From an uncultured virus (IMG/VR IMGVR_UViG_3300024999_000036) (lineage: Duplodnaviria; Heunggongvirae; Uroviricota; Caudoviricetes), in IMG/VR virus record IMGVR_UViG_3300024999_000036: a stretch of 38,669 nt of DNA; one strand, written 5' to 3'. Within the stretch, counting starts at the first letter, position 1, and every line of letters starts with the position of its first letter. Shown in pieces: positions 6,046 to 38,011 of this stretch. A model generated the notes under the pieces. The model had not been told where the DNA came from. It searched no databases and saw only the letters and a program-made list of their open reading frames with translations. The position numbers were made by a program, and so were the translations under genes.

Positions 6046-6110
6046 ATCATCATAAAACATGAATTTTATACAGTTTTTCAATTTCTAAAACTCTTATAAA
6101 TCAATGCTTT
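6046..6110. repeat. Composite palindromic site: core plus 23-bp accessory palindrome
   Basis: ATCATC-ATAAAA-catgaa-TTTTAT, 18 nt, AAACTCTTATAAATCAATGCTTT. Confidence 0.7.
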
Positions 6111-6366
6111 ATAGACTATCAGTTTTTTCATTTTTAATTTTTCAAGTAAATTATTTTTATTTAAAGAATTTATAAACATTTTATTAATTTGTTTGCGTTT
6201 TTTCTGATTGAAATTCACCATTATTAATATTAATAAGATTCATTTCACAATTCCAAGCATGATTACTATTACTAATATCTTGTAAACAAAATGGACATAT
6301 AATATTATTCATATTAATTATATTTTATCCTTTCTAATCTTTTATTTTATTTTTATTCCATTATTT

Positions 6367-6507
6367 TTATTCCATTACAAAATAACATCCACAATCACAA
6401 AATACAATAGGTTTACCATTATTATCTAATTTAACAACTTTAGGATCAATAATTAATTTACCACATCTTGGACAATTTATATTACCCATTAAAATACCTT
6501 TTGGCAT
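6367..6507 (-). CDS. 46-aa Zn-ribbon microprotein
   Basis: CPRCG...FCDCG; AGGAGG RBS. Confidence 0.6.
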   Translation of the reverse strand: MPKGILMGNINCPRCGKLIIDPKVVKLDNNGKPIVFCDCGCYFVME

Positions 6508-6533
6508 AAATATTCCTCCTATATATTTTATCA

Positions 6534-6725
6534 TCACTCATCTTCCAAATATCTCTCCAAACAATTAACACAATCTTCAATACATGCAATACGAAATTTA
6601 ATACAACAATATTTATCTCTATGTAATTTTTCAGCAATCTTTCTTTTTTCTTCTTTCCTCCCTTCTTCTTTTTTCATTTCTGAGAATTGTTCTATAGTAT
6701 CTGCATAAAAAGTTATTTTGCTCAT
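6534..6725 (-). CDS. Hypothetical Cys-rich protein
   Basis: ORF with RBS. Confidence 0.6.
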   Translation of the reverse strand: MSKITFYADTIEQFSEMKKEEGRKEEKRKIAEKLHRDKYCCIKFRIACIEDCVNCLERYLEDE

Positions 6726-6770
6726 AGATTACTCCTTTCTTTATAATTTTATTATACTTATATTATAATT

Positions 6771-6989
6771 TTACAATTTAATATTAATCCTAAAATCACA
6801 CTCAAGTATCAATTTTGCTAAATCTTTCTGCAATTTAGTTGCGATATTATGCCATTCTATTACTTCTATATCTGATATTTCTACAGGTTGATCCTGATTC
6901 TGAAATATAATAGATAATTCTTTAATCCTATCTTGAAGTGATTGAAATTGGTTATAAAATTGTTTATCTGATCTTATTGTATGTTGCAT
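6771..6989 (-). CDS. Hypothetical protein
   Basis: ORF with AGGAGG RBS. Confidence 0.6.
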   Translation of the reverse strand: MQHTIRSDKQFYNQFQSLQDRIKELSIIFQNQDQPVEISDIEVIEWHNIATKLQKDLAKLILECDFRINIKL

Positions 6990-7168
6990 GGTTAATTTGC
7001 CTCCTTTCTTACATTTTTACTCTAATGTCATTTATATCTGACGTACTAATACTGCCATCTTCATACACAATAATTGCTAATGTTTTACCATCTGCTCTAA
7101 CAAAATTAATAACATAAGCATCAAAACTTACTGGCATATCACAAAAATGTGTTAATTTTAATTTCATA

Positions 7169-7414
7169 TTATTTCTCCTTTTTGAAACTTTCTATTACAT
7201 TACAAACTCCTTCAATAAGTTTATAATAAAATTCATTAACAAAATCATCTAACGTCATTAAATGTTCTCCGTCCCATTCAAGTCTAATTTCATCAGAAGA
7301 ATAACCTTTAAGTCCTTTTATTTCACCAATCATGTCTGATATAATCTCATTTTTATTATATCCTTCTTCTAATTCAAAGAAATCAATTATTTGTTGTAGT
7401 TTTTTATTACTCAT
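7169..7414 (-). CDS. Hypothetical protein
   Basis: ORF with RBS. Confidence 0.6.
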   Translation of the reverse strand: MSNKKLQQIIDFFELEEGYNKNEIISDMIGEIKGLKGYSSDEIRLEWDGEHLMTLDDFVNEFYYKLIEGVCNVIESFKKEK

Positions 7415-7415
7415 A

Positions 7416-7598
7416 TTAATCTCCCTTATATTCTTCTAATATAATAGTCATTTCTTCTAACCATTCTGCACATTTTTCTAATTGTTGTTTTCTATAATTA
7501 ATGTCACGATTAGTAGACATTCTACGATAAGAATCCACTATTAAATTAAGATTTTTATTGTATTTTGATAATAGATTCACAGGTAATAGATTTAGAAT
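7416..7598 (-). CDS. 60-aa hypothetical protein (ATT start)
   Basis: AGAAAGGAGGTTTTAAT-ATT, same leader as the gene at 4409; open frame to TAA at 7416. Confidence 0.5.
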   Translation of the reverse strand: MLNLLPVNLLSKYNKNLNLIVDSYRRMSTNRDINYRKQQLEKCAEWLEEMTIILEEYKGD

Positions 7599-7636
7599 AT
7601 TAAAACCTCCTTTCTATATCATAATAAATGAAATTA

Positions 7637-7933
7637 TTATATAGACTCAACCATATTATCTTTTATTAAATTATATAAAGGTTTTAAATTAAAAATATTA
7701 AATAATCCTGTTTCTTCAACATAACATAAAATATCTATATGTCTATTATTTGTATTTACAGTAATTCTAAATTCATTATTAATTTGACAAAACCAATTAT
7801 TTAAATGATAATAATGATCTTCTGGATGTTCACAATTTGTGGGATCTTCTATAAATCCATATTGTGCCAGTTTATTTAAATTTATATTATCTTTTAATTT
7901 AATATATTGATTCATAATTATTCCTTCTTCCAA
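7637..7933 (-). CDS. Hypothetical protein
   Basis: ORF track; real start probably the second Met. Confidence 0.6.
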   Translation of the reverse strand: MEEGIIMNQYIKLKDNINLNKLAQYGFIEDPTNCEHPEDHYYHLNNWFCQINNEFRITVNTNNRHIDILCYVEETGLFNIFNLKPLYNLIKDNMVESI

Positions 7934-8312
7934 TTTTCATAAGTATTCCAAATAACATTAATTACATTTTCTTCTATTTGTTTAATATTATGATTCGTTC
8001 CTACTATACCTTGTCTTTTAATTTCATTAATTAAATATTCAACAAAACCTCTTATACCTAATGACATGATTTATTTTCTCCTTTCTTTTTAAATATTATA
8101 TTTCATCTCTTATTTCTCTAATAAAACTTTTTATTTTGCAAACATCACACATATTTCCATCTATCCATGCATCTTCAATATCTCCATATAACATACTCAT
8201 AATAGTATCTTCCATTTCTTGTTTATTGCATTTATATTTACAAAAATAATTTTGAATATCTTGTAGTTTTTTCCATTTCTAAATTTATTATAAGGATATG
8301 CCTCCTTTCTAA

Positions 8313-8377
8313 ATCATCACAAAATTTATCTTTTGTGATGATATTTAATCTCACAAATTCTTTATTTATAAGGGTTT
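8313..8377. repeat. Composite palindromic site with a perfect 12-6-12 core
   Basis: ATCATCACAAAA-tttatc-TTTTGTGATGAT, then AAATTCTTTATTTATAAGGGTTT 18 nt after the inner arm. Confidence 0.75.
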
Positions 8378-8396
8378 CTAATTAGTCATTAGTTAA

Positions 8397-9245
8397 TTAT
8401 TTAAATAAATTTAACCATTCTTTATTATTAATCTTACTATTGCCACTAATCCCACCTTTCCCTCCTTTGAAATTTAATAAAAATGATTCTTCTGAATACT
8501 TTTTACATTCTGATACATATATTGGTGCTAATGTTTCTTGCATTAAATCACCAACAAATTCTTCCCAATTAAAACTAAAACCATATTTAGTTGTATTTTT
8601 ATATGGAGGGTCAATATAAAAAATAGAATTATCGGTATTTTTAAATCTTATGTATTCTAAAAAATCGTAAATATCAATATGTAAACAAGTTAATCCTTTA
8701 CATTTATCTACTATTGAAAGCATTCTTCTTTTAATAGTATCTGGCATTGGTATCATTGGATTAACAGGACTTTTTCTTTTTGCAATACCATTAGGTTGCC
8801 AATAATTTCTAAAAGAAGTATTATTCCAAATACCATTTTCTTTCCATATTTGTTTACCACCAAATGCACCAGATTGTAATAAAATATATCTGTATTCTTC
8901 ATCAATTTCAGGATTTTCTTTTGATAATTTTTTTAAATATGATTGTATTTTATATTTGTCTTTTGGTACATTTTCAATATATGTATTAAATTTTTCAATA
9001 TCATATTCTCCGCTACCTACTTTACTCCAAAACAAACCCCAAGAACTTTTATCTAACATAACAATATTTTTTGGTTTTATTCCTCTGGAGATTAATTCTA
9101 ATGATATTGTACCTGTGCCACAACATAAATCATAAAATTTTGTATTATTGTTTATAACATTTTGTTCAAATATTAAATCAATAATTTCAGTTACCACTCT
9201 TTGTTTTGCACCTTGATAGGTACAAGGCGGTATTAACTTTTGCAA
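8397..9245 (-). CDS. Orphan DNA adenine methyltransferase (D12/Dam-like)
   Basis: YQGAK, DLCCGTG (motif I), IDPPY (motif IV). Confidence 0.85.
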   Translation of the reverse strand: MQKLIPPCTYQGAKQRVVTEIIDLIFEQNVINNNTKFYDLCCGTGTISLELISRGIKPKNIVMLDKSSWGLFWSKVGSGEYDIEKFNTYIENVPKDKYKIQSYLKKLSKENPEIDEEYRYILLQSGAFGGKQIWKENGIWNNTSFRNYWQPNGIAKRKSPVNPMIPMPDTIKRRMLSIVDKCKGLTCLHIDIYDFLEYIRFKNTDNSIFYIDPPYKNTTKYGFSFNWEEFVGDLMQETLAPIYVSECKKYSEESFLLNFKGGKGGISGNSKINNKEWLNLFK

Positions 9246-9263
9246 ATAATCGCTCCTTTTATT

Positions 9264-10241
9264 TTAATAAATTCTTTTATCCAATAATCTAATGTCATTT
9301 ACTTCAAACATATCACAAATCAAACCTACCCTAACCCACATCCCATTTTCAACCTGCTCCCAATACTTTGCCCTATGATCTTTATCAATCTCAACACTAA
9401 TCTCATTTCTTCTAGGAAGAGGATGAAGTATAATAGCATCATCTTTTAAAGTATTTATATTGTTTTTATTAATACTATATCTACTCGTATCAATAAAATC
9501 TTCTCCATTAATTTGTCCATATTCATCTTGCAATCTTGTCATATATACAACATCCATTTCTGGTAATACCTTTTCAATATTATCAGTAACTTCATAATCG
9601 ATATCTAATTGTTCCAAAATGTCATTTTTAATTTGATATTTTTCAGGAGCAACGAAAAATAACTTTGTACCACTAACTTTATTTAAAAGTAATGATAATG
9701 ATCTTACAGTCCTACCTCTAAGAAGATCACCAACAAATGCAATTTTCTTACCTTCTAATAATCCATATTTCCATATGGTATAAAAATCCAATAATGCTTG
9801 AGTTGGATGTTCATTTGAACCAGAACCAGCATTAATAATTCTAATATCATTAGGTAGATTATTTGATATTTCATAAATAAAGTCAGAAGATGGATGTCTC
9901 ATAATAATTAAATCTGCATATTGTGAAAATGTTTTAATAGCATCTAATTCAGTCTCGCCTTTGATTTCTGAAGATGTGCTGGTGTCACGTATTTCAGAAC
10001 ATGACATACCTAATACGTGACACGCATTTTGAAATGATAAGAATGTACGTGTTGATGCTTGTTTAAAATACAATATTGCTCTTTTGTGAGATAGGATAGT
10101 TTTAAGGTATTGTAAACCTTCTTTAGTTAATGCAATGTTTCTAATATTGTCTGTTAGTTTACATAGATTTAGTAAGTTTTCTAATGTGAATTGATTTGAG
10201 TTTAAGCATCTTGTTTGAGAATTTGTATTTATGGGATTCAC
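9264..10241 (-). CDS. pyrB: Aspartate carbamoyltransferase catalytic subunit
   Basis: STRT, KGET, HPTQ, GDL..GRTVRS, TRLQ and HPLPR all intact. Confidence 0.93.
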   Translation of the reverse strand: MNPINTNSQTRCLNSNQFTLENLLNLCKLTDNIRNIALTKEGLQYLKTILSHKRAILYFKQASTRTFLSFQNACHVLGMSCSEIRDTSTSSEIKGETELDAIKTFSQYADLIIMRHPSSDFIYEISNNLPNDIRIINAGSGSNEHPTQALLDFYTIWKYGLLEGKKIAFVGDLLRGRTVRSLSLLLNKVSGTKLFFVAPEKYQIKNDILEQLDIDYEVTDNIEKVLPEMDVVYMTRLQDEYGQINGEDFIDTSRYSINKNNINTLKDDAIILHPLPRRNEISVEIDKDHRAKYWEQVENGMWVRVGLICDMFEVNDIRLLDKRIY

Positions 10242-10276
10242 TCTCCTTTATATTTATAATATATTTTTTATTTTTG

Positions 10277-10331
10277 TAATATAGTAATAGTTATTACATA
10301 CTATAAATTAATAATAACTATTACTATATTT
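10277..10331. repeat. Perfect 20-bp inverted repeat between the VWA gene and pyrB
   Basis: TAATATAGTAATAGTTATTA-15 nt-TAATAACTATTACTATATTA. Confidence 0.7.
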
Positions 10332-10342
10332 ATTTTTATATT

Positions 10343-12589
10343 TTAATATTCAACTTTAACTTTTTCACTTTTAATATTCAAAATCTTATCATCTTTCTTA
10401 TAATACCAATTGCCTTTATCATCTTTTTCTAAATTATCAAACCAAGAACCAGTTAAAACAACAGCAATTTTCATACAATTAATTTTTGTTCTTTCTGTAA
10501 ATAATTCTTTTTTAACAATTTCTAATTGTTGTTGTAAAACATCCTTATGTTCTTCAGTTAAGTTATTTAGATTATTGTATCCTAATTTAGTTAAACCAAT
10601 ATTCAACATATTAATATAATCATACATATATTTATTAATATCATTTAATTTCTTTTTAGTTTCTACTTTTTTAAGAACATCATTTATACTAGGAATGCTA
10701 CTATACCCCTTTAGATTAAATTCTAAACATCTTGCAAAATAATAATCTTTTGATTCTGCTTTTTGATTATCCACACCCACATATTCTAAATTTTTATTTA
10801 ATCCATGTTGTTGTAAAACTTCAATTTGTTCAGCAGAAAAATCTTTAAACTTACCTTCTATAATATTATGTTTATTAATAATTTCTTTAATATAAAAATT
10901 TAATACTTTTTGTTGTATTTCTAATTCATTAATTTTAACAACACTATCAAAAATGTTTTCAATATTGCTACTTTCATTAATATACATGCGATTAATAACT
11001 GGTAATTTATTCAGTATTATATTAACTTTATATGCATTATCATTTGAATTAATTAATTGAATAAATTCAATATTATTTTTATTTTGAATTTCAATTAATT
11101 TATTATACGTTTCTTCATCTAAAACACATTCAATTTCTTGCATGTTTAAATTACCATCTTTAATTAAAGTATGTGTTCTAAATATTTTACTATCGATTTC
11201 TTTATCTAAATTATGTTTACTAGCAATTTTTGCATTAATTTTTACTTTCCCATAAATAGTTAATGGTAAACTTACATTTAAAAATTTCTTATTGTAAGTT
11301 AAAGTATTAATAGGTGTTTTACTTTCATCTTCATTTTTAACAAACAAATTAAATTTATCTTCTGTTTTTGTTCCAATTCTTTGATAGTTTTTAGAAGGAA
11401 TATAATAATTATTACCTTCAGATAAAATCTTAAGTAAATCCATAATACAAAAACTATTATCTTTAGGTAAGTAGTTATCAGGAGATAAACCTGTTTTATA
11501 TCTAGTCTTAGGTTTGAATATGCTATTTTTTAATTCTTTAGTATATTGCCCAACTTCATCATTTGTAAAAATATTTAATTGTGTATCTACTAAATATTTA
11601 TCATGTAAATTATTTGCAATGATATTTAATGCTTCTTGTCTTTTGTTTATGTAAAATAATTCGTAAGCATATGTATAAAAGAAATTATTAATTGTTGGTT
11701 GAATATTTTTGTTTATTTTTGTGATAGGTAATTTTGATGTATCAATAATTTCATCATTATATTTAAAAGTAAAGTCCTTATCAGATAATATAAATATTTG
11801 ATTTTTCTTTTTATCTAATCTATTCAATTTTAATGTATTTTGCGTATATTTGGAAGAATTACTATTAAGATATATAATATCTATGTTTTCTGTTTCGTTA
11901 ATAACATCAATTTCAACAGATTCTAAAATTAAATCATTAACTCTTTCATAATTATGGTCAAAGATAGAAACATACTCATTAATATGATTAGAATGAATTG
12001 CATTTCCAAAAGTAGATTCTGCTGAAATACGTTTTAATAAATCTTGATTATAATAATATCCATAACCAATTGTATTAAATGCTAATATCTTATCTTTAAA
12101 TTTAGTAATTTGAGCAAATATTTTATTTTCTTCTTCTCTTTCTGTCCAAGGTACAACTACTTCTCCATCTGTAAATAGATTAACACTAATACTATTACAA
12201 ATATTAAATAAATCTTCAATAATTGTATTTGTTTCAGCAATAGGAGTAGAAAAGCAAGTTAATCCAACAGTTGATTTAATAGAATCTAATAGTTTAAATA
12301 AACTTTCATCTTTTTTAGCACCTTTAATTAAAACTTTACATTCATCATGTCCACTAAACCATATAATACTGACATAATCATTATCGGACATATGTTGAAT
12401 TGCTAGTTTAACATTTTCTATTAAATTGCTTATTTCTCTTGACATTGAACCACTTCTATCAAGAATGTGAATGTGATGCTGAGAATCTACTTTAATAGAT
12501 TGTGTTTGTTGTTCAGTTTGATTGTGATTGATTGTAATTAAAATTTTGTCTTGATTGTTGATATTTATTAAGTTTTTGGTTGTAGACAA
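10343..12589 (-). CDS. VWA-domain protein (748 aa)
   Basis: MIDAS motif DRSGS, later T and FTDG; long unknown C-terminal region. Confidence 0.85.
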   Translation of the reverse strand: MSTTKNLININNQDKILITINHNQTEQQTQSIKVDSQHHIHILDRSGSMSREISNLIENVKLAIQHMSDNDYVSIIWFSGHDECKVLIKGAKKDESLFKLLDSIKSTVGLTCFSTPIAETNTIIEDLFNICNSISVNLFTDGEVVVPWTEREEENKIFAQITKFKDKILAFNTIGYGYYYNQDLLKRISAESTFGNAIHSNHINEYVSIFDHNYERVNDLILESVEIDVINETENIDIIYLNSNSSKYTQNTLKLNRLDKKKNQIFILSDKDFTFKYNDEIIDTSKLPITKINKNIQPTINNFFYTYAYELFYINKRQEALNIIANNLHDKYLVDTQLNIFTNDEVGQYTKELKNSIFKPKTRYKTGLSPDNYLPKDNSFCIMDLLKILSEGNNYYIPSKNYQRIGTKTEDKFNLFVKNEDESKTPINTLTYNKKFLNVSLPLTIYGKVKINAKIASKHNLDKEIDSKIFRTHTLIKDGNLNMQEIECVLDEETYNKLIEIQNKNNIEFIQLINSNDNAYKVNIILNKLPVINRMYINESSNIENIFDSVVKINELEIQQKVLNFYIKEIINKHNIIEGKFKDFSAEQIEVLQQHGLNKNLEYVGVDNQKAESKDYYFARCLEFNLKGYSSIPSINDVLKKVETKKKLNDINKYMYDYINMLNIGLTKLGYNNLNNLTEEHKDVLQQQLEIVKKELFTERTKINCMKIAVVLTGSWFDNLEKDDKGNWYYKKDDKILNIKSEKVKVEY

Positions 12590-12642
12590 GGGTAAGTCCT
12601 CCTTTTATATTTTATATTTTGTTTATTTAAATTTAATTTTTA

Positions 12643-13230
12643 TTATTCAATAGTAATAACTTCATCATCTTTAGTATTCATAATATAGAATGGTCTTTTT
12701 ACTCCACAAGCATGTTTTTCTGATGCTTCTAAGCCTTCTTTGATTCTTTTAACACTATCTTTATCTTTGTTTTGAGATAATACAGCTAAAGCAAAATTCC
12801 CACCTGAACCATCTGCAATATATTCATCTTCTGTTTCTAATACTGCTCCAGTAATATCTATCCAATATAACTGATTTTTATAGGCAAATATTAAATTACT
12901 ATCTAAATATGAAATACCATCTTTATATCCACAACATTCATATTTCTTTGCTATATTAAATATTTTTGGAGAAGTATATTTAATTATATGTTCAATGTTA
13001 ACTTCATTTTTTAATTCTTTAATTTCTTCAACTAATTTCTCTTCAATAGAAAGAATATTTAATAATTTAATTCCACCGCATACTGCCATTAATATATTCT
13101 TATTATCTTTTGCTTTAAATACTTTTTTATTTTTGATAGTTAATTGTTTATTCCATGTTGATGCAAGTGAATCTGCACCTATGTATACACAATCTTTTTC
13201 TTTGTCTAATAAACCTATAATACAGGTCAT
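12643..13230 (-). CDS. Ntn-hydrolase, HslV/proteasome-beta-like peptidase
   Basis: N-terminal M-T-C-I-I-G, GADS, KKVF, GSG. Confidence 0.75.
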   Translation of the reverse strand: MTCIIGLLDKEKDCVYIGADSLASTWNKQLTIKNKKVFKAKDNKNILMAVCGGIKLLNILSIEEKLVEEIKELKNEVNIEHIIKYTSPKIFNIAKKYECCGYKDGISYLDSNLIFAYKNQLYWIDITGAVLETEDEYIADGSGGNFALAVLSQNKDKDSVKRIKEGLEASEKHACGVKRPFYIMNTKDDEVITIE

Positions 13231-13268
13231 AATTATCCTCCTTTGTTTCTATTTTATTATATTATGTG

Positions 13269-13923: not shown

Positions 13924-13937
13924 ATTAATTACCTCAT

Positions 13938-18201: not shown

Positions 18202-18384
18202 CTATATTAATAATTTATAATCAAAACATGTGAATTTTTCTTTTCTCTTTTGCGTTGTGTCTGTTTTATATTGTGGACATTGAAATTCTTTAGGACATTT
18301 TAATCCTAAATCACAATTACATTTTTCATCACTGGTTAAGCATTTAATTTGTCTTTCTGTATAATGAACGCATATAATTTTCAT
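18202..18384 (-). CDS. Cys-rich microprotein
   Basis: ORF with RBS. Confidence 0.55.
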   Translation of the reverse strand: MKIICVHYTERQIKCLTSDEKCNCDLGLKCPKEFQCPQYKTDTTQKRKEKFTCFDYKLLI

Positions 18385-18410
18385 TAATTTATCTTCCTTT
18401 CTAGGTTAAG

Positions 18411-18434
18411 ATAAAACCTATATTTGGTTATGAT
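18411..18434. repeat. Palindromic core site (degenerate)
   Basis: ATAAAA-cctata-TTTGGT-TATGAT. Confidence 0.5.
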
Positions 18435-18448
18435 ATTAGGTCAATTAT

Positions 18449-18495
18449 TATCTATATATAGTACATGTTGATATATTTAATACTATATATTGTAT
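18449..18495. promoter_or_regulatory. Tandem NrdR-like boxes
   Basis: tatCTATATATAGTac (18449) and ataCTATATATTGTat (18480), 31 bp apart. Confidence 0.65.
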
Positions 18496-18518
18496 ATGTA
18501 GTATGGTATATTTTTATT

Positions 18519-19955: not shown

Positions 19956-19989
19956 CGTAAATTCTCCTTTTTATTTTGTATTTTTTAAT

Positions 19990-20053
19990 ATCGTGACGAA
20001 ATTCTGATTTGGGCTGAAATTGATGTCTATAAATCCTTATAAATCAAGGTTTT
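19990..20053. repeat. Composite palindromic site (degenerate core)
   Basis: ATCGTG-ACGAAA-ttctga-TTTGGG, 17 nt, AAATCCTTATAAATCAAGGTTTT. Confidence 0.6.
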
Positions 20054-20079
20054 CTGAATTGATAATTTTTGATATTTTC

Positions 20080-20370
20080 TTATATTAAACTTTTATAAGC
20101 TAATTTCTTAGTTTTATTCATACCTATTGAATTATAAATATCACAAGATAAGTGTAAATCATCATATTTAAGATTTTTAACATTTAATTGTTTAGTAGAT
20201 ATTGTATAACCACTAAAACATCCTAAAATTGAATTTCTAAATACTGACTTACATTTTTTAATTTCTTCGATATAATCATTTCAATTTTCAATTTCTACTA
20301 CTCTTGATTGATGATCTGCTATATTATCGTTATTGTCTAAAGAAAGATTGGTTTCTATTACTTTAATCAT
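20080..20370 (-). pseudogene. 96-codon ORF interrupted by an in-frame TGA
   Basis: MIKVIETNLSLD...HQSRVVEIEN*NDYIEEIKKC...; strong RBS; the frame continues 66 codons past TGA at 20281-20283. Confidence 0.65.
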
Positions 20371-30131: not shown

Positions 30132-30143
30132 ATATGTTACACC

Positions 30144-30866
30144 TCATAATTTATATTCTTTCCATTCTATTGATTGAGTTTTATAATCTAACTCATCATA
30201 ATTTATTTCTTTATTTTTAATAATATTTTTTAGATTATTAATCATTTTTGGTAATATGTTTTTTATTAAATCATTTTGATGGTTGTAGTCTTTAGGTTTA
30301 ATATTTAAATCCTGTTTAATTACATCTTCATAATTGTATGAAGTATATCTATAGCTTTCATATAATGCAAATTTTAAATATTCGTCTAATGTAGCAATCA
30401 TTTTTGTATTAAAATTAAGCAACATTATTTGTTTAAATAATTCTTGTATTTTATTATATAAAGCATAATCATCATATTTTTGTAATTCATATTTATATTT
30501 AATATTTAATTCATTATACTTAGAAATTAATATTTTTTCTTTAGTATCTTCATCTATTCTATACCAATTATCTTTACTTATTCCTACTTCTATAATCGCA
30601 TTGTGTTTTCCTATACATTTAAATATTAAAAATGGCTTACTATAAATTTTTGAATTATCTATTACATCTTCACTATAAATAAAAATAGTATCTTCAATTT
30701 TAGCATTGCTTAATTTTTCAATAATACAATTTTTTAATTCTTCATAAGATTCTATTTTGTTAGACGAATAACTTTCAGGTTCAATTTTAATATTTTTATT
30801 AATAAAATCATCTATCTTATAATAGAAATTTTGTTTGTCTTTTTTATTGACTAATAGTTTTTGCAT
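30144..30866 (-). CDS. Hypothetical protein
   Basis: ORF with RBS. Confidence 0.65.
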   Translation of the reverse strand: MQKLLVNKKDKQNFYYKIDDFINKNIKIEPESYSSNKIESYEELKNCIIEKLSNAKIEDTIFIYSEDVIDNSKIYSKPFLIFKCIGKHNAIIEVGISKDNWYRIDEDTKEKILISKYNELNIKYKYELQKYDDYALYNKIQELFKQIMLLNFNTKMIATLDEYLKFALYESYRYTSYNYEDVIKQDLNIKPKDYNHQNDLIKNILPKMINNLKNIIKNKEINYDELDYKTQSIEWKEYKL

Positions 30867-31045
30867 ATTATTTACTCCTTGTTTTTATCTTTATAATGAT
30901 CGCATCCATCCTTAAATCTTCTTTCTAACTCATGTAAGCTATAAATCTCTTTATTTAATTTACTACACCACATTTCACCCCACATTGCTTCGTGCATATA
31001 AATATACTTACAATTTGAACAATCAATCATATAACTATTCACCAC

Positions 31046-31255
31046 CTATAAAAACTTAGCATCTCTCAATGCAAAATTTCTTTCTTCACCTTTATCAATA
31101 TCAAAAGCTTGTAACATCCATTGTTCTTCTTTATGAAATTCTGTACTACCAAACCAAAATTTATAAGGAATAACTTTTCTTAAACTTGTTTCACCTTTCC
31201 AGTTTGTATATTCAAATTGTAGTATGGGAGCAAATACTGTATCCATATTATTCAT
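31046..31255 (-). CDS. Stand-alone WYL-like domain protein
   Basis: FEYTNWKGE...R.V.P...QWMLQAFD......RNFAL. Confidence 0.75.
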   Translation of the reverse strand: MNNMDTVFAPILQFEYTNWKGETSLRKVIPYKFWFGSTEFHKEEQWMLQAFDIDKGEERNFALRDAKFL

Positions 31256-31265
31256 TCTCCTTTAA

Positions 31266-31493
31266 TTATTTTTGTTCGCAAACAATCTTTAATATTTTAT
31301 AATTATGTTTCAATCTAAATTCATCTCTATTAATTTCTTGTGAAATTGCAATTTTAGCATCTTCTATATCGTTAAATATTATTGCTGTACCAGGATATGA
31401 TTTACATAATAACAATTCTTCTTCTCCACAACTATAACTTACAAAATACATATTGATTCCTCCTTTATATCTCCCAATCCAATCTTTGCCCAC
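31266..31493 (-). CDS. Hypothetical protein
   Basis: ORF; real start probably MYFVS after AGGAGG. Confidence 0.55.
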   Translation of the reverse strand: MGKDWIGRYKGGINMYFVSYSCGEEELLLCKSYPGTAIIFNDIEDAKIAISQEINRDEFRLKHNYKILKIVCEQK

Positions 31494-31749
31494 AATTACA
31501 ACAATACTTCATATCCTTGAAAGTTTCACCACATGAAAAACAATATGTAACTAATTTATTATATTGACCATCTGCATCAATTGGATGTCTTACTTTCATT
31601 GGAATTTGTTTTTCTAATGCTTTTATTGCTAAATCATAAAATACAACCATTCTTGGGTTTTCATCAGCAAAAGCAAATTCTTTTGAAGTTTTAAATTGTT
31701 CAATTGCTTCTTGTAGTTGTTTAGTGTTCATATTTATCCCTTTCATCAA
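31465..31749 (-). CDS. Phage Zn-ribbon protein
   Basis: ALEKQIP...CFSCG...YCCNCGQRLDW. Confidence 0.7.
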   Translation of the reverse strand: MMKGINMNTKQLQEAIEQFKTSKEFAFADENPRMVVFYDLAIKALEKQIPMKVRHPIDADGQYNKLVTYCFSCGETFKDMKYCCNCGQRLDWEI

Positions 31750-31993
31750 GATATTTTCTAATACAATTTAAACAATAATCTTTTTCTGCTCTATCTGGAA
31801 TTCCTGTAGTCATAAATTCTTTAAATTTTCTTATTTCTTTTCCACAATTATCACAAATTTCATCCCAAGAATACCAAATGCATTTATCAGGTTTATTTGA
31901 TTTTTCATTATATTTTACTCGCTGAATATTACTTTTCAAATTTATTTTCCTCCTTATATTGGTAAAATAAATGTTTATTTCATATACGGACAC
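31721..31993 (-). CDS. Hypothetical Zn-finger protein
   Basis: CDNC...CLNC; start uncertain. Confidence 0.55.
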   Translation of the reverse strand: MSVYEINIYFTNIRRKINLKSNIQRVKYNEKSNKPDKCIWYSWDEICDNCGKEIRKFKEFMTTGIPDRAEKDYCLNCIRKYLDERDKYEH

Positions 31994-32223
31994 TTATATA
32001 ATTTACATCCACAAATATTATGTGATAAACTATTATGTATAAAAGGATATTCTGGATGATATACTTTTAAATCATTAAGCATATGTGAAGAACACTTATC
32101 TATTACCTTCATCCCACATTCAGAACAGTAGTATCCAATTCTAAATGCTCTGCCACCTCTTATGTTTTCAGTTTTAACCAAGTATTTTATTACACTTCCT
32201 TTAGTTAATTCAATTTTGACCAA
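31975..32223 (-). CDS. Hypothetical Cys/His-rich protein
   Basis: ORF with GAGGTG RBS. Confidence 0.55.
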   Translation of the reverse strand: MVKIELTKGSVIKYLVKTENIRGGRAFRIGYYCSECGMKVIDKCSSHMLNDLKVYHPEYPFIHNSLSHNICGCKLYKCPYMK

Positions 32224-32261
32224 AATTAATCACCTCTTTAAAACTAAATCAAATAATTCTA

Positions 32262-32447
32262 TTATATTTTGCCTAAATAAGAATAATTAATTAAATATAG
32301 TTTACTAGTATTTATATAACTAATATGATGTTTTGTTTTTAAATACTCAACAAATTTATCTTTTGCTTCGTCAACATTATTTGCTTCAGTTTTTACACAA
32401 TGACTCATTACCCATTCTTCATCATAAATACAAACATATTCATCCAT
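32262..32447 (-). CDS. Hypothetical protein
   Basis: ORF with RBS. Confidence 0.6.
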   Translation of the reverse strand: MDEYVCIYDEEWVMSHCVKTEANNVDEAKDKFVEYLKTKHHISYINTSKLYLINYSYLGKI

Positions 32448-32479
32448 ATAATTACTCCTTTCTTTATAAAATGAAAGAT

Positions 32480-32740
32480 TTACTTACTTAATTTCTCCAT
32501 ATCATAATTATCTCTAATATAATCAATAACTTTATTTATTTCTGTTTGAATGTGCTTATCACCTTTCAATTCTGGATGGATTTTAACCATACACGAATTT
32601 TTACTACCATTAGTTTTATACTTGTTTAAATCAAATACTACCAATAATAAAGGTACTTCGGTGTAATTTTTGGTAAAGTTTTTCATTAACCATTTAAACA
32701 TAAACTTTATTCTCCTTCTTAATCCATCTTTTGACCACAA
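32480..32740 (-). CDS. Hypothetical protein
   Basis: ORF; real start probably MFKWL. Confidence 0.6.
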   Translation of the reverse strand: MWSKDGLRRRIKFMFKWLMKNFTKNYTEVPLLLVVFDLNKYKTNGSKNSCMVKIHPELKGDKHIQTEINKVIDYIRDNYDMEKLSK

Positions 32741-33042
32741 TGCTTACATACTTTCAATTCTTCTGCACATTTATCACATAATATATCAACACAAGTATTT
32801 TCAAAAGTTAATTCTTTATCACAATTAGCACAAATAACTGTAGTCATTGCAGAACCACCAATTCTTGAAGTATTAGCGTAGTAACAAAATTTACATAGAT
32901 GCTTTTCTTTAATCCTTATTTTCTTGTCTGGATCTGAATAGTATAATATTAATTTAGCAGATGTTTTATCTATATATTCTTTATTATAATATTTAGCATT
33001 TAACATTTTAGTTTTGTCTAATATTTGTTTTCTTGGTTGCAT
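32719..33042 (-). CDS. Multi-CxxC Zn-finger phage protein
   Basis: Four CxxC pairs, IGGSAMT motif. Confidence 0.7.
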   Translation of the reverse strand: MQPRKQILDKTKMLNAKYYNKEYIDKTSAKLILYYSDPDKKIRIKEKHLCKFCYYANTSRIGGSAMTTVICANCDKELTFENTCVDILCDKCAEELKVCKHCGQKMD

Positions 33043-33097
33043 ATTATTTCTCCTTTATTTTACCAGATTATTTTCTTCTTAATATGGTTATAATTCC

Positions 33098-33192
33098 ATT
33101 AGAGGAGTTGGCAAGAGAAGCAATGATATATAATATATATAATTCTTTGGAAGGGAATTAAGTTATTATGTATTATGCCAATTTCCTCTAAT
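33098..33192. other. Intergenic inverted-repeat element, candidate structured RNA
   Basis: ATTAGAGGAGTTGGCA / TGCCAATTTCCTCTAAT arms enclosing an inner hairpin TAATTC...GAATTA. Confidence 0.45.
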
Positions 33193-33198
33193 TTTAGT

Positions 33199-33450
33199 TT
33201 AATTACTGTTACTAATTTTTTCTATCTCATCTAAAATATTTTCATACGCAAATAAAATTCCTTGCCAATATCCTAAATTTTGACCACCAAAATAATTATG
33301 AGTTTCATTAGGTTTATCTCCATGAGATTCTTTTATTAAAGATATTCTTTTGTCTGCTCTTGATATTCTCTTTAATAAATATTCTTTAAAATTATTTATA
33401 TTTATCATTCCATTTCTTTTTATTGTCCCAATTCCATTCTTTTTCCACAT
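33199..33450 (-). CDS. Hypothetical protein
   Basis: ORF; start uncertain. Confidence 0.6.
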   Translation of the reverse strand: MWKKNGIGTIKRNGMININNFKEYLLKRISRADKRISLIKESHGDKPNETHNYFGGQNLGYWQGILFAYENILDEIEKISNSN

Positions 33451-33620
33451 TTACATTTAATAACACTAAATTCTTCTGCAATATCACTAGTAAAGTTTTT
33501 CATTTTATTATTGATACTATAATCCATATCTCCATCATACCAATCATATTTATCTTCTTTAATAATTTCTACTTCTTCAATAATTCCACAATCACATTCA
33601 AATCTGATAAATGCTTTCAT
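33420..33620 (-). CDS. Zn-ribbon microprotein
   Basis: CDCG...CKCG; AGGAGG RBS. Confidence 0.6.
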   Translation of the reverse strand: MKAFIRFECDCGIIEEVEIIKEDKYDWYDGDMDYSINNKMKNFTSDIAEEFSVIKCKCGKRMELGQ

Positions 33621-33639
33621 GTTTTCCTCCTAAATTTTA

Positions 33640-33663
33640 ATAAAATGTCGGTTTTATCATGAT
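33640..33663. repeat. Palindromic core site
   Basis: ATAAAA-tgtcgg-TTTTAT-CATGAT. Confidence 0.65.
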
Positions 33664-33667
33664 TTAA

Positions 33668-33714
33668 ACACTACATATAGTATTATTTAATTTTATTTAT
33701 ACTACATATAGTAT
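33668..33714. promoter_or_regulatory. Tandem NrdR-like boxes
   Basis: acaCTACATATAGTat (33668) and ataCTACATATAGTat (33699), 31 bp apart. Confidence 0.75.
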
Positions 33715-33741
33715 TTATAACAACACAAACATTTATTTGTT

Positions 33742-34293
33742 TTACAAACTATCTTTTTCTTTTATTAATCTTTGAATTTCTATTTCAATCTGTTTCTTTC
33801 TGTTTTCATTATCTATTATACGTAAATCACCTAATTCAGAATACCATTTTATATATTCATTTGATGTATCTTCATTACAATCTATAAATTTAGACTCATT
33901 ACATTTTCTTACAATAATTCTTGGTGTATATTCATCACAACTTCCATGTGTTCTCCATTCTAATTCTATTTCAAAATATATTTCATCTTTTTGTAAATAT
34001 CTATCTGGAAAATCTTTATCATCATTATATTCTTCTATTTCGTAAGTTTTTTCTATTGTTTCTCCAAAATGAATAGACATTGTACCATACGAATAAGCAT
34101 CTTCAGGATCTTGACTATAATTAATATAAAACTTTTTATTATTAGTTTTTTCAATTAATTCTAATAATAGAGGATGATTATCTTTTTGAATTAATACATA
34201 ATAAGGTACAACTTTTCTAAGATTATAACTATCACCTTTAAATTGTCCAATTAATTCTTTCTTAACTTCATTTAATAATCTATTTCTATTCAT
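33742..34293 (-). CDS. Hypothetical protein
   Basis: ORF with RBS; resembles 21699..22373. Confidence 0.7.
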   Translation of the reverse strand: MNRNRLLNEVKKELIGQFKGDSYNLRKVVPYYVLIQKDNHPLLLELIEKTNNKKFYINYSQDPEDAYSYGTMSIHFGETIEKTYEIEEYNDDKDFPDRYLQKDEIYFEIELEWRTHGSCDEYTPRIIVRKCNESKFIDCNEDTSNEYIKWYSELGDLRIIDNENRKKQIEIEIQRLIKEKDSL

Positions 34294-34374
34294 AGTATTT
34301 TATCTCCTTTATTTTTATTTTATTTTAATTTTCATATATTTTTCTATTATCATAAATAATTATTCTCCTTTAGT

Positions 34375-34683
34375 TTATTTATAATCTTCTCCAAATTTAA
34401 TAAATTCTCTTCCATCTTCATAACCTTCAAATAACAAATCAAAAACACTATCAAATGCTTTAGACATTGGAGAATCACCTGTTTCACTATCTAAACATTC
34501 TTCTATAATTTGTTTTGCTACAAATTCAGCAAACATTTGTTTTTTACCTTTTTTAACTTTTGATTCATTGTAATTATTAGGATAAAGTTCAAATGCTTTT
34601 ATTAAAATATTAATTGGGATTTCAATTGTTAATTTTTTATTTGTAAGTTTTGTTGTAAAACCAAAGTTTTCAAATTTTTTCAT
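34375..34683 (-). CDS. Hypothetical protein
   Basis: ORF with RBS. Confidence 0.65.
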   Translation of the reverse strand: MKKFENFGFTTKLTNKKLTIEIPINILIKAFELYPNNYNESKVKKGKKQMFAEFVAKQIIEECLDSETGDSPMSKAFDSVFDLLFEGYEDGREFIKFGEDYK

Positions 34684-34720
34684 AATTATATCTCCTTTAT
34701 TTATTTTTAAAAATTAATTT

Positions 34721-35332
34721 TTAATTGTCTAATTCTTCACTTAATTTATCTGCTTCTTCAAAACTCATTTCTTTCAAATAATTATATTCATCAGTAAATG
34801 AAATATTTGCATTCCATTTTTGTTTTAACCATTCTTCTTTTGTCATTGTATCTGTTTGTAAATCATATTCTAGAATATGAGAGCAAATTGGGTATCCATC
34901 TTCTGCATCATAACTTCCACCCATAAATCCTCTACTTCTATCTCCATTATCTTCATCAAAACTTGTGCAAAAATAATATATAAATTTTTCTCTTAATTCT
35001 TTTGATTCTGATATATATTCAGAAATAATTTGATATGCTTTATTATTAGAAGGAAAATCACATTCTCCATAATTTAATACTCCTGTTTCATATCCAAATA
35101 GTAAATCTTGAATCCATGTTTCATTATTTTGAATGATATAATCATATTTTTCTTTAGTTACAATACCTTTATTAAGCATCCATTGAAGAATATCTTTTCC
35201 ATTAATAAAACTTTCATTAGTATCTATTAAATCTTCACCTGCTTCACGCATCCATTGTACAATTGCAGAATAAACCATAACAGGATTTTTTAATTGCTCT
35301 TCATTTGTAATAATTGTTGATATTTTTCTCAT
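34721..35332 (-). CDS. Hypothetical acidic protein
   Basis: ORF with RBS. Confidence 0.7.
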   Translation of the reverse strand: MRKISTIITNEEQLKNPVMVYSAIVQWMREAGEDLIDTNESFINGKDILQWMLNKGIVTKEKYDYIIQNNETWIQDLLFGYETGVLNYGECDFPSNNKAYQIISEYISESKELREKFIYYFCTSFDEDNGDRSRGFMGGSYDAEDGYPICSHILEYDLQTDTMTKEEWLKQKWNANISFTDEYNYLKEMSFEEADKLSEELDN

Positions 35333-35336
35333 ATAT

Positions 35337-35768
35337 TCATTCTCCTTTATTATTTGATTTTTGTTTTTTCTTAACCTTCTTAATTTCTTCTACTAACTTA
35401 CTATCTTTTTCATTTCCTTCTTTTTTATCTTTCTTTAATTTTTTATCACACCATTTTAAAACACCGCAACAACCGACTATGCCTTTTACTGAATTATCTT
35501 TACACGTACTTCTTGGATACTCCATATATATTTCATATTCACTTTCAAGTCCTTCATTTACTTTCCATTTAGTTTTAATTATTTCTGTGATTAGGTTAGG
35601 ACATTTGCTTTGCGATGTGGATTCTTCACTACTTGAATCATCTTCATTTTCTATGTATTGTTTTTCATTTTCTATTTCTTCATCATCTTTGTGTTTATCA
35701 TCTATTAAACTACTTTTAATTTTTCTTATGATTAAAACCTTCTTTCTATTGTAGATAGTATATTTCAA
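35337..35768 (-). CDS. Hypothetical charged low-complexity protein
   Basis: ORF track. Confidence 0.5.
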   Translation of the reverse strand: MKYTIYNRKKVLIIRKIKSSLIDDKHKDDEEIENEKQYIENEDDSSSEESTSQSKCPNLITEIIKTKWKVNEGLESEYEIYMEYPRSTCKDNSVKGIVGCCGVLKWCDKKLKKDKKEGNEKDSKLVEEIKKVKKKQKSNNKGE

Positions 35769-36055
35769 TTTTTACCCATAAACTCTGCTAAATTTCTTAT
35801 CCCAACGATAGATTGAAATGCACTCATAAAATCACATAGTTGATATTTAATTCCTATATCTGGATCTGGTTTATTATTTTTATACAATAATTTATGTGTT
35901 TTATAACAATCATTTTTGAATTTATTAAACTCAAATTCTCCATGATTATTATAAAATATAATTCCATACATTGCTAACTTATCAATAATATTATTAAGCA
36001 TATTTAAATCTATATTTTGTATTCTTTTTAAAACTTGTGTTTCTAAATTTTCCAT
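35765..36055 (-). CDS. Hypothetical protein
   Basis: ORF with RBS. Confidence 0.6.
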   Translation of the reverse strand: MENLETQVLKRIQNIDLNMLNNIIDKLAMYGIIFYNNHGEFEFNKFKNDCYKTHKLLYKNNKPDPDIGIKYQLCDFMSAFQSIVGIRNLAEFMGKN

Positions 36056-36056
36056 A

Positions 36057-36335
36057 TTAATTTTCTCCCTTCTCTTTAATTATATAACCTTTACCATTAC
36101 ATTTACTACATGAATAATATGATACTGAATATCCACCATAACCACTACTATCAGAAATTTCACCAGTACTACGACATGTTTTACAAGTTGAAATAGATAT
36201 ATTCAAGGTGTCTTCAATTTTACCTAGTTTTTCATCTTCTTCTATTTCTTCTTTGAATAGTTTAGTCATTTTTTCTTTAATTGATTTTTTATTGTTCATT
36301 ATAATATCTATTTGTTTAGTTAAAATATCATTCAT
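36057..36335 (-). CDS. Protein with DnaJ-type CxxCxxxG Zn finger
   Basis: CKTCRSTG...CSKCNGKG. Confidence 0.65.
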   Translation of the reverse strand: MNDILTKQIDIIMNNKKSIKEKMTKLFKEEIEEDEKLGKIEDTLNISISTCKTCRSTGEISDSSGYGGYSVSYYSCSKCNGKGYIIKEKGEN

Positions 36336-36550
36336 AATTATTTTCTCCTTCTATTTAAAATAAGGACAATCTAATCTTGATTCTAATTTAAGACACAATA
36401 CACAAACATCATAACCACCCATAGTACATTGTAATTTACATTTACTGCATACACATTTTTCACAGATAGGATTTAAATCTATAAGTGAATAATTCTTTGT
36501 TTTTTAAAATATTTAGTTGACCATTTTAACATTTTTATTCCTCTTTTATA

Positions 36551-36808
36551 TTAATCTAATATATAATATTTCCCTTTCATGAATTCCTTTCCTAATCTAA
36601 TTTCATCCATATTATTATTTACTATAACTACTTTATCACCAAAAACACCTTGAATTGTCTTTCCATTAGACCATGCGGTCAATGCTTCTATAAAAGTTAC
36701 TTCTTTAGTTTTTTCACTTTTTAATTTAATTAATTGATTAAACTATTCTTTATCTTTAATATCTAATGCAATATCAATTAAATCATCATAGATAGTAGTA
36801 TTTTTCAT
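36551..36808 (-). pseudogene. IDEAL-like domain gene interrupted by an in-frame TAG
   Basis: LIDIALDIKDKE*FNQL... (TAG at 36743-36745 where the family usually has W); frame continues to TAA at 36551; strong RBS. Confidence 0.65.
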
Positions 36809-36832
36809 AGTTTTTATTTACCTCTCCTTATA

Positions 36833-37276
36833 TTAATCTGCACAACTATCACATTTTCCTGTATCATAATAATCAGCAAATAATTCTCCGCATACTGAAC
36901 AAACACTTAAACAATCGTCACAAAAATATTCATCAAAACTTTTATCTTTATTATGATATTTTAATTCTGAAGGTTTTAATGTTTTATTACAACCTTTACA
37001 ATATATTTCTAATGTTTCAATTTCTATTTTTACTTTAACTTTTCTATCCTTTTGAAAAATATCATTAGGATACAATCTAACTTTATCTCCTATTGGTTTA
37101 CAATTATCAAAATCTGAATCATCTATTTCTGCATAATCAAATACATCTATTTCTCTACCTTTTATTCTTTTAAATGTTTCTATGTCTACGTCCCAACAGA
37201 AACATTCATAATCACCAGAATTAATTGCTGTGAATTCTATTGTCTTTTTCATGTTAATTGGTCTCCTTTTTAACAA
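36833..37276 (-). CDS. Hypothetical protein with C-terminal Zn fingers
   Basis: Four CxxC pairs; real start probably MKKTI. Confidence 0.65.
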   Translation of the reverse strand: MLKRRPINMKKTIEFTAINSGDYECFCWDVDIETFKRIKGREIDVFDYAEIDDSDFDNCKPIGDKVRLYPNDIFQKDRKVKVKIEIETLEIYCKGCNKTLKPSELKYHNKDKSFDEYFCDDCLSVCSVCGELFADYYDTGKCDSCAD

Positions 37277-37677
37277 TATTTTTCTATTAATATACCACCT
37301 TTATCCATACACATTTTATAATAAAATTTATTAACTCTTTCCAACATTTCTTTGAAATCATCATATAATTCATCTGAATATACCTCTGTTGGTTCATTTA
37401 TATCTGTATTAAATCCTTCTTTAATTTCTTCCGTTAACCATTCTTCACAAAATTTAATAAATTTGTTTCTATTGCTAGTTGAAATAATAATTGTATTTTT
37501 CGTAACAGTAATACGATCTCTATTTTCTTGAAATTTTTCTTTAACCTTCTGAATAAATTTATCTTGATTTTTAGAATGATATAAATCACACATAAACCTA
37601 CCATCTTCATAAATTATTCTCATAATATTAATCTCCTTTAAACATTGATTTCCATTTATTCTTAATTTCTTTTTCAA
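37270..37677 (-). CDS. Hypothetical protein
   Basis: ORF; real start probably MRIIY. Confidence 0.6.
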   Translation of the reverse strand: MKKKLRINGNQCLKEINIMRIIYEDGRFMCDLYHSKNQDKFIQKVKEKFQENRDRITVTKNTIIISTSNRNKFIKFCEEWLTEEIKEGFNTDINEPTEVYSDELYDDFKEMLERVNKFYYKMCMDKGGILIEKYC

Positions 37678-37918
37678 TTTCTTGATTCCAGAACCAAATA
37701 GGTGTATCCATTTTTACTTTACAACAATTAAACTTCTCGCAATTATTACAATCATGCATAGACTGTGCTGTACCTAATGGTTCATATTTATTATTGCCTT
37801 TGTTTTTATAATAATTACAACCTGACCATTTTAAATTTCTGTTATTAGAGCTTAATTCAAAATATTCTTCATTAAGTTTATTTAATTCTTCTTGTGTAGT
37901 GATTATGTATTTATTCAT
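37628..37918 (-). CDS. Hypothetical protein
   Basis: ORF with RBS. Confidence 0.6.
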   Translation of the reverse strand: MNKYIITTQEELNKLNEEYFELSSNNRNLKWSGCNYYKNKGNNKYEPLGTAQSMHDCNNCEKFNCCKVKMDTPIWFWNQEIEKEIKNKWKSMFKGD

Positions 37919-37952
37919 AACTTTCTCCTTTCCTAATATTTTGTAAGTTTGA

Positions 37953-38011
37953 ATAAAACATCGATTTTATGCTGATATTGAGAATAACAAAGTGTTGATT
38001 TTATTGGGTTT
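37953..38011. repeat. Composite palindromic site
   Basis: ATAAAA-catcga-TTTTAT-GCTGAT, then AAAGTGTTGATTTTATTGGGTTT 18 nt after the inner arm. Confidence 0.7.

Follow-up and report, generated by a model that had tools for sequence, protein, structure and literature searches.

The 38,669-nt stretch of viral DNA analysed here (IMG/VR record IMGVR_UViG_3300024999_000036, Caudoviricetes; below, the window) contains four 23-bp sequences (23-mers), each lying at a set distance from a second, dyad-shaped site that we call the core. We found that 23-mer and core belong to one repeat family, a module of ~100 bp with fixed internal spacing that is located just 5' of ribosome-binding sites, in the orientation of the genes. 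The window comes from a distant SPbeta-like temperate phage. Based on the sequence comparisons described below we propose, with moderate confidence, that the module may provide transcriptional control at early gene junctions via proteins docking on its two dyads.

The earlier note on this DNA had described the four 23-mers as palindromes lying on the same side of the cores, 18, 18, 17 and 18 nt beyond the inner right arm. All four were found at the positions it named, and the gaps are exact when counted on the plus strand from the end of the inner six bases (TTTTAT at 6064-6069, TTTTGT at 8331-8336, TTTGGG at 20008-20013 and TTTTAT at 37965-37970). Their placement on one side of the core was borne out as well and, because all genes of the window are on the minus strand, this side is upstream in the gene sense. 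The sites are listed below with their scores against the matrix described further on.

6088..6110, minus strand: 23-mer of site 1, matrix score 21.7, a degenerate copy of the AAACCCTT-N7-AAGGGTTT dyad
8355..8377, minus strand: 23-mer of site 2, matrix score 21.1
20031..20053, minus strand: 23-mer of site 3, matrix score 21.0
37989..38011, minus strand: 23-mer of site 4, matrix score 18.0; its 3' half (gene sense) is one arm of a 14-bp inverted repeat
38040..38053, minus strand: upstream arm of this perfect 14-bp inverted repeat at site 4 (partner arm 37989-38002, loop of 37 nt)

The word palindrome applies to the family and not to its window members. The window copies are ordinary in this respect, with 10, 12, 14 and 8 of 22 positions self-complementary, and the 120 AAA-N17-TTT words of the window (the four sites included) cover the same range. 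The family consensus is a true dyad, AAACCCTT-N7-AAGGGTTT, with 8-bp arms and an asymmetric centre that occurs in both orientations. For this reason the best match to the consensus lies on one strand for sites 1 and 3, which resemble each other on the plus strand, whereas site 2 matches it as the reverse complement.

The relatives of the window are IMG/VR contigs of 100-175 kb (G and L numbers are our labels for the genomes or contigs and the loci compared). The nearest of them, G001 (151,782 nt), has a DNA identity of 83-98% to the window across most of the shared region. Two related contigs, G001 (151.8 kb) and G002 (41.7 kb), were searched for modules and domains. The profile used was built from the four window loci and the site-4 counterparts in G001 and G002; it revealed 21 full modules (four in the window, 12 in G001 and five in G002) and four core-only copies, and no modules in G003-G006. 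In the gene sense the module consists of an A-rich lead, AAACCCTT-N7-AAGGGTTT, an 11-nt linker, a 13-nt left arm, a 6-nt spacer and the right arm, and at each window locus the 23-mer, 11 nt and the 13-6-13 core lead up to a start codon with its Shine-Dalgarno site. In all 21 modules the 23-mer precedes the core when read in this sense. The end of the 23-mer is separated from the 6-nt spacer by 24 nt in 17 of the 21, by 23 nt in one (window site 3), by 34 nt in one and by 52 nt in two. The spacing is fixed because 23-mer and core both belong to a single repeated cassette. The window modules and their cores are located as follows.

6032..6137, minus strand: module 1 (family profile, E 5e-13)
8268..8410, minus strand: module 2 (family profile, E 1e-19), within a 1.86-kb stretch replaced by 0.44 kb in G001
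19972..20085, minus strand: module 3 (family profile, E 2e-16), missing from this gene junction in L001, L002 and L007
37912..38047, minus strand: module 4 (family profile, E 2e-19), kept at the same place in G001 and G002
6045..6076, minus strand: core of site 1, a 13-6-13 dyad
8312..8343, minus strand: core of site 2, a perfect palindrome with 12-bp arms
19989..20020, minus strand: core of site 3, the weakest copy, shorter by 1 nt
37946..37977, minus strand: core of site 4, a 13-6-13 dyad

The 14-bp inverted repeat of site 4 is kept in G001, and its upstream arm is absent in G002. The pairing with a 23-mer is restricted to the window, G001, G002, G012, G014 and G015; cores found elsewhere are single or have a different partner. 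G012 contains two copies, with gaps of 24 and 34 nt, respectively, and in G014 and G015 the gap is 34 nt. The copies with the longer gap (G001 148598, G012 31173, G014 4756 and L125) have in common an insertion of ~10 nt containing TTAATTT and hence go back to a single event by descent. The insertion amounts to one helical turn.

The four-site pattern is real and goes beyond chance. The earlier note had taken the conserved spacing as an argument against coincidence, and this was upheld by an independent matrix, by shuffling and by the 21-copy family itself. When a 23-mer matrix was trained on the 14 aligned copies of G001 and G002 only, with the window excluded, and both strands were scanned, the four sites were the top matches in the window (21.7, 21.1, 21.0 and 18.0 on the best strand); the next, unrelated match scored 12.5, and there was no fifth site. 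Maxima in 20 shuffled windows averaged 11.9 (sd 3.2), the largest being 20.1. Three of the four sites therefore exceed every shuffle, and the one at 37989 (18.0) is above the mean null maximum and below the largest. With a 66-nt matrix comprising 23-mer, linker and core, the four loci scored 57.5, 43.3, 40.5 and 13.4, and the null maximum was 3.0. A profile of the 23-mer alone gave 19 distinct matches in the window, G001 and G002, all 19 of them at modules. A motif scattered independently of the cores, or at random distances from them, would have spoken against the proposal of the earlier note; within the phage clade (the window, G001 and G002) the 23-mer was never found away from a core, but outside it the perfect palindrome is common in viral contigs that have no core.

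The modules are closely linked to gene starts. A Shine-Dalgarno sequence with a start codon and an open reading frame (ORF) of at least 30 aa follows within 80 nt downstream of 16 of the 25 copies, compared with 15.3% of 2000 random gene-strand positions, and many copies end only a few nucleotides before the Shine-Dalgarno sequence. All copies in the window and in G002 and 10 of 12 in G001 are co-oriented with the genes.

Perfect sigma-70-type promoter consensus sequences were revealed next to two of the window modules.

38108..38136, minus strand: TTGACA-17-TATAAT, ~95 nt upstream of the site-4 23-mer
6011..6039, minus strand: perfect sigma-70-type consensus, next to the site-1 core on its downstream side

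Such a consensus is possibly present upstream of module 3 as well, and one lies directly downstream of the G001 148598 copy. Several readings of the module as a promoter were considered by eye and rejected: CAAWAT as the -10 element (no -35 upstream), YAAAAN with a TG extension as the -10 (last base not conserved), ATGACA in the left arm as the -35 (no -10 at 16-18 nt) and the centre of the 23-mer as the -10 (no -35). An archaeal TATA/BRE reading was likewise dropped once the phage identity and the Shine-Dalgarno sites were clear.

To characterise the two dyads we compared conservation, pairing and folding of the copies. In the 21 modules the information content is highest at AAACCC, GGGTT, ATCAT, the C of ACAAAA and TTTT, and the linker is variable. 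In 18 aligned copies the two proposed helices are paired in 69.8% of cells, against 71.6% when the 3' letters were shuffled among the sequences; 471 of 500 shuffles paired at least as well, meaning that there is no covariation and that each half of a dyad drifts independently of the other. Only three of the 18 23-mers fold at -7 kcal/mol or better, 15 are weaker than -3.1 kcal/mol, and eight, including three of the four window copies, do not fold at all (0 kcal/mol); three perfect copies fold at -7.4 to -9.6 kcal/mol. Since the halves are independent, few copies fold and the arms are conserved, both dyads behave as double-stranded sites for dimeric proteins, with half-sites of uneven quality, rather than as hairpins. 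An intrinsic-terminator hairpin maintained by compensatory change does not agree with three stable copies among 18 and no covariation. In the aligned copies read in the gene sense the stem is followed only by TTT and then by G, A or C in place of a U-tract, and a terminator scan of the window did not list any of the four 23-mers.

The closest precedent is found in SPbeta. G001 contains, in SPbeta order, homologues of yopQ, yopR (mrpR), yorI, yorJ, yorK, yorL, yosS, yorS and the serine integrase gene sprA, and on this basis the window is identified as that arm of a distant SPbeta-like temperate phage which comprises the nucleotide-metabolism and early genes. The yopR homologue at 47187-48248 of G001 matches MrpR over its full length (PDB 8a0a and 8bj6, E ~7e-15) and adjoins the YopQ homologue; the yopQ-yopR region lies outside the window itself. 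According to the published account, MrpR is a repressor with the tyrosine-recombinase fold that has no recombination activity and lacks most catalytic residues, and it binds a repeated element, SPBRE (SPbeta repeated element), in ten SPbeta promoter regions (PMC10516654). We re-derived SPBRE from seven of these ten regions as a ~23-bp element, CAAATACAAAWAATATGTATATA, located between the promoter hexamers or between the -10 and the Shine-Dalgarno site.

The two systems have much in common: a dyad element of ~23 bp in about ten or more copies per genome, an intergenic, promoter-proximal position just upstream of the ribosome-binding sites of early operons, and a large temperate phage with a serine integrase and a yopQ-yopR pair (here in G001). 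This likeness, together with the YopQ/YopR (MrpR) homologues and other SPbeta-like genes of G001, is why we regard SPBRE as the nearest known counterpart. The two elements also differ. The derived SPBRE consensus does not align with the 23-mer, and only a short ACAAAA-like word is common to SPBRE and the core; in addition, the 23-mer has a second dyad as its partner, at a constant distance of 24 nt, and we saw no fixed partner in SPbeta. By analogy, the 23-mer may be a clade-specific add-on that is functionally comparable to SPBRE. The MrpR/YopR homologue itself can be put forward as its binder only tentatively, as a somewhat unlikely candidate. Among uncultured bacteria of low G+C content large phages of the SPbeta type are common, and their early-gene switching is known for SPbeta only.

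The core has a wider distribution than the 23-mer. Its 13-6-13 layout, with the inner part AYAAAA-N6-TTTTRT, was present across 18 aligned copies; the spacer is 6 nt in every copy and the symmetry of the arms is imperfect (69% of cells paired). At least six cores occur in the 38.7 kb of the window, two of them without a 23-mer (listed here together with the positions of palindromes that take its place):

18374..18439, minus strand: core without a 23-mer; the G001 copy at the same place keeps it
33612..33665, minus strand: core without a 23-mer, with two TACTATATGTAGT-type palindromes ahead of it
18481-18503 and ~33680-33730 of the window, and around 7626 and 24382 of G004: TACTAYATRTAGTA-type palindromes

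Cores lacking the 23-mer also occur at several places in G001 and G002. At the 18439 and 33665 cores and at several cores of G004 the place of the 23-mer is taken by an alternative upstream partner, TACTAYATRTAGTA (14-bp palindromes, usually in two copies). The pairing of one core with differing upstream palindromes would fit a modular operator design. The pattern AYAAAA-N6-TTTTRT is over-represented in the window (six observed, 0.57 expected), in G001 (13 and 1.8), in G003 (five and 0.3), in G004 (17 and 1.5) and in SPbeta (13 and 0.77); a search of IMG/VR for the perfect core pattern gave no matches. In SPbeta (NC_001884; L055-L057) the 13 sites read ATAAAA-N6-TTTTAT (e.g., 24127, 99497 and 128076), are mostly intergenic and are distinct from SPBRE. 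We infer that the core is probably an older gene-junction element common to SPbeta-like phages and the 23-mer a lineage-specific partner of it, which suggests a pan-SPbeta gene-junction dyad acting as a platform for lineage-specific operators.

Taken as an operator, the arrangement could work as follows. The 23-mer would be the upstream dyad of a two-dyad cassette of ~100 bp placed before operons of the early region, and a dimeric DNA-binding regulator would dock on it. This regulator and a factor bound to the core would together set transcription downstream, by repressing or activating initiation or by forming a roadblock. The fixed spacing would reflect both the shared descent of the cassette and a required register of the two bound proteins. 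If so, the two-dyad cassette with its rigid spacing would provide a concrete operator map for an SPbeta-like phage of groundwater.

It should be mentioned that a number of observations weigh against this operator reading. The window 23-mers are degenerate and are possibly decaying copies. Two G001 copies depart from the usual orientation, the one at 3557 being inverted and the one at 148598 lying among minus-strand genes. Sigma-70 matches of at least 10/12 adjoin only five of the 25 copies, and their positions are inconsistent (two directly downstream, three ~150-170 nt upstream); inspection by eye did not reveal a convincing sigma-70 -35/-10 register inside the module or a conserved -7 T. The domain Sigma70_r2 (sigma-70 region 2) was found in neither G001 nor G002, and Pfam scans of 20 + 41 window ORFs gave no helix-turn-helix (HTH) or DNA-binding family. 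The phage of the window is contained in eight DNA sequencing runs (groundwater, soil and sediment metagenomes), and no RNA runs were listed beside them. The MrpR homologue of G012 is only 36% identical to that of G001, yet the 23-mer is kept there, which speaks against MrpR as its binder. Similarly, of the 13 AYAAAA dyads of SPbeta just one is found in the 300 nt upstream of a gene named as MrpR target, and MrpR is therefore unlikely to bind at the core. The 23-mer of two other phage contigs is followed by a T-run and then by TTGACA-17-TATxAT, an order favouring the terminator-promoter cassette discussed below. Finally, the exact consensus 23-mer occurs in 86 bacterial genome stretches (L173-L258) of several phyla where composition predicts at most ~0.1, although an exact-match search biases toward invariance and about a third of the 86 matches represent three loci shared within clades; in acI Actinobacteria it is inside a coding region, within the 5' end of a LysM gene that neighbours lexA.

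One alternative, which we consider unlikely, is that the 23-mer is a hitch-hiker without a function of its own. The whole module would then have been copied together with gene cassettes, by illegitimate or homologous recombination, and the window copies would be in decay. Such copying is suggested by the clean presence or absence of module 3 relative to three related loci, by the position of module 2 inside the 1.86-kb window-specific stretch and by the 34-nt-linker copies, which are one event by descent; decay is suggested by the 8-14 of 22 symmetric positions kept in the window 23-mers and by the 18439 core, which has no 23-mer where its G001 counterpart keeps one. However, neutral decay would not predict that, in 21 copies, conservation is among the highest in the dyad arms while the linker drifts. 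The site-4 23-mer is also kept in three genomes despite diverged flanks, and it has been retained in G012, whose MrpR homologue is so distant (36% identity).

The module could also be a terminator-promoter cassette, in which the 23-mer ends the upstream transcript and the core region starts or controls the next one. The PeSL cassettes of T4-type phages, described as composite promoter-terminator motifs (PMC2839356, PMC4122927), would be a parallel. They are likewise repeated composite intergenic cassettes before early genes, at places of gene gain and loss; they differ in combining a stem-loop with a sigma-70 early promoter, whereas here most stems cannot form and sigma-70 sequences are near few copies. 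Besides the two phage contigs mentioned above, the folding of the consensus in three perfect copies (-7.4 to -9.6 kcal/mol) and the intergenic position of the modules, at indels, favour a terminator, as does the fact that in many bacteria the exact consensus tops longer GC-rich stems followed by T-runs. Nevertheless, eight of 18 copies are unfolded and 15 weaker than -3.1 kcal/mol, compensatory changes are missing, three T only follow the stem in the gene sense, and at site 4 the motif is downstream, not upstream, of the consensus promoter. We therefore regard the terminator-promoter cassette as doubtful.

The wide occurrence of the 23-mer bears on both this alternative and the operator reading. 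In unrelated viral contigs the perfect palindrome has at least 117 matches; among the matches listed, one has a core at the standard distance and two have it at +10 nt, and the same 7-nt centre is present in 11 of 117 palindromes among the matches listed. The IMG/VR loci with the exact consensus 23-mer, from several unrelated phage contigs, are L065, L098, L106, L109, L116, L136, L145 and L162. In bacteria the exact 23-mer occurs once per genome in five of the five genomes checked, also when two mismatches are allowed. Its bacterial contexts are unrelated to each other: tops of longer terminator-like stems, tRNA-adjacent positions, upstream of a RepA_N gene and beside an integrase. Pfam searches of 120 partial ORFs flanking the bacterial 23-mers revealed no common neighbour, Rfam searches of 20 bacterial loci with the 23-mer returned tRNAs only, and the 17-letter centre of the motif, searched as DNA and RNA on both strands, had no literature match.

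The recurrence of one particular centre weakens the idea of a phage-specific operator, and a terminator origin and a widely shared binder are both possible. In the latter case the consensus 23-mer might be a docking site for a widespread DNA-binding protein, possibly a host factor, recruited at a fixed register beside an SPbeta-type gene-junction dyad; on the sequence matches available this has, in our view, only a small chance of being correct. If true, the recruited 23-mer would couple the early operons of the phage clade to a widespread factor, and the occurrence of the exact 23-mer across phyla, unless it is due to selection bias, would indicate a shared DNA signal that has gone unrecognised.

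A signal acting in the RNA leader is a quite improbable alternative. Here an antiterminator, a nuclease or a translational repressor would be recruited by the transcript of the 23-mer and core, much as at the nut site of phage lambda, where a hairpin lies at a set distance behind a linear box. The sigma-70-type consensus upstream of site 4, and possibly of site 3, would indeed cause the module to be transcribed as a leader of ~170-180 nt, many modules end a few nucleotides before the Shine-Dalgarno sequence, and one core difference between the window and G001 alters both arms (ATAAAA..TTTTAT and ACAAAA..TTTTGT). Against this stand the lack of covariation in 18 copies, the absence of any Rfam family match in the window and the consensus promoters downstream of the module at site 1 and G001 148598. 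Furthermore, the asymmetric centre of the 23-mer occurs in both orientations relative to the core, which fits a DNA dyad and not an RNA box.

The earlier note had read the 23-mer as a binding site for an accessory protein that sets directionality or topology, as at the Xer sites cer/psi; the cores would then be crossover sites of a tyrosine (Xer-like) recombinase. Several features invite this reading: the core has the 13-6-13 geometry of recombinase sites, the spacing to the second site is fixed, the modules are at indel boundaries, the lineage encodes a protein with the tyrosine-recombinase fold (the MrpR homologue), and cer/psi sites have two inverted arms around a 6-bp spacer, flanked on one side only by another protein site. 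The accessory region at cer/psi extends over some 150-200 bp and is bound by PepA/ArgR/ArcA, and there is one such site per replicon; here we found a 23-bp dyad 24 nt away, numerous copies per genome (12 full modules in 151.8 kb), nearly all co-oriented and tied to gene starts, and cores that also occur with other upstream elements or with none. The tyrosine recombinase domain (PF00589) was not found in G001 or G002 by a search that was positive in 14 of 14 control genomes, the only recombinase of the window is a serine integrase, and the synteny of the window and G001 shows no inversion, deletion or rearrangement bounded by two modules. SPbeta MrpR, moreover, is described as devoid of recombination activity and of most catalytic residues (PMC10516654). 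Thus, a recombination role is highly improbable; what survives of that proposal is protein-docking behaviour at a fixed distance, supported by the dyad consensus, by the conserved, independent arms and by the inability of most copies to fold. In such phages recombinase-like site geometry need not imply recombination.

The G+C content of the window is 24%. Besides the integrase, PHROG/Pfam matches comprise thymidylate synthase, dUTPase, anaerobic ribonucleotide reductase, thymidylate kinase, DNA methyltransferases and 5'-3' deoxyribonucleotidase.

440-2071: large serine integrase (PHROG/Pfam), the sole recombinase in the window
9264-10241, minus strand: full-length catalytic chain of aspartate carbamoyltransferase (PDB 3lxm, E 1e-53)
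10343-12589, minus strand: vWA protein of 748 aa
12643-13230, minus strand: HslV/proteasome-like peptidase

The last three are cargo uncommon in phages. The top GenBank phage matches of the vWA protein are from the Bacillus jumbo phages Internexus, PBS1 and AR9 (43% identity). A 325-aa ORF that had been suspected to encode MrpR proved to be the aspartate carbamoyltransferase. Megablast of 8 kb of the window against GenBank phages gave no matches, Rfam found none in the window at E up to 1, and the YonO-type D-x-D-G-D motif was absent from the six frames of G001, G002 and the window.

Reading TGA as sense would raise the ORF coverage from 88.7% to 90.8%, and because this gain is small genetic code 11 was kept; whole-window ORF statistics give no support for a TGA-sense code. 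An in-frame TGA at 20281-20283 (minus strand) splits the 97-codon ORF 20370..20078, and L001 and L002 have TGG (Trp) at this position. The frame is open past the TGA, and a nonsense mutation, a sequencing error or local read-through is possible.

Two genes of the window lack a usual start codon. In a 63-codon membrane-like ORF at 5790-5981 (minus strand) a perfect AAAGGAGGTGAT ribosome-binding site is followed 8-9 nt on by ATA, and a second gene at ~25950 (minus strand) likewise has ATA 8-9 nt after a perfect AAAGGAGGTGAT site. No ATG, GTG or TTG is near either codon, and the same is seen in the G001 counterpart (L007 ~15545). Thus, ATA may serve as a non-canonical start at these two genes.

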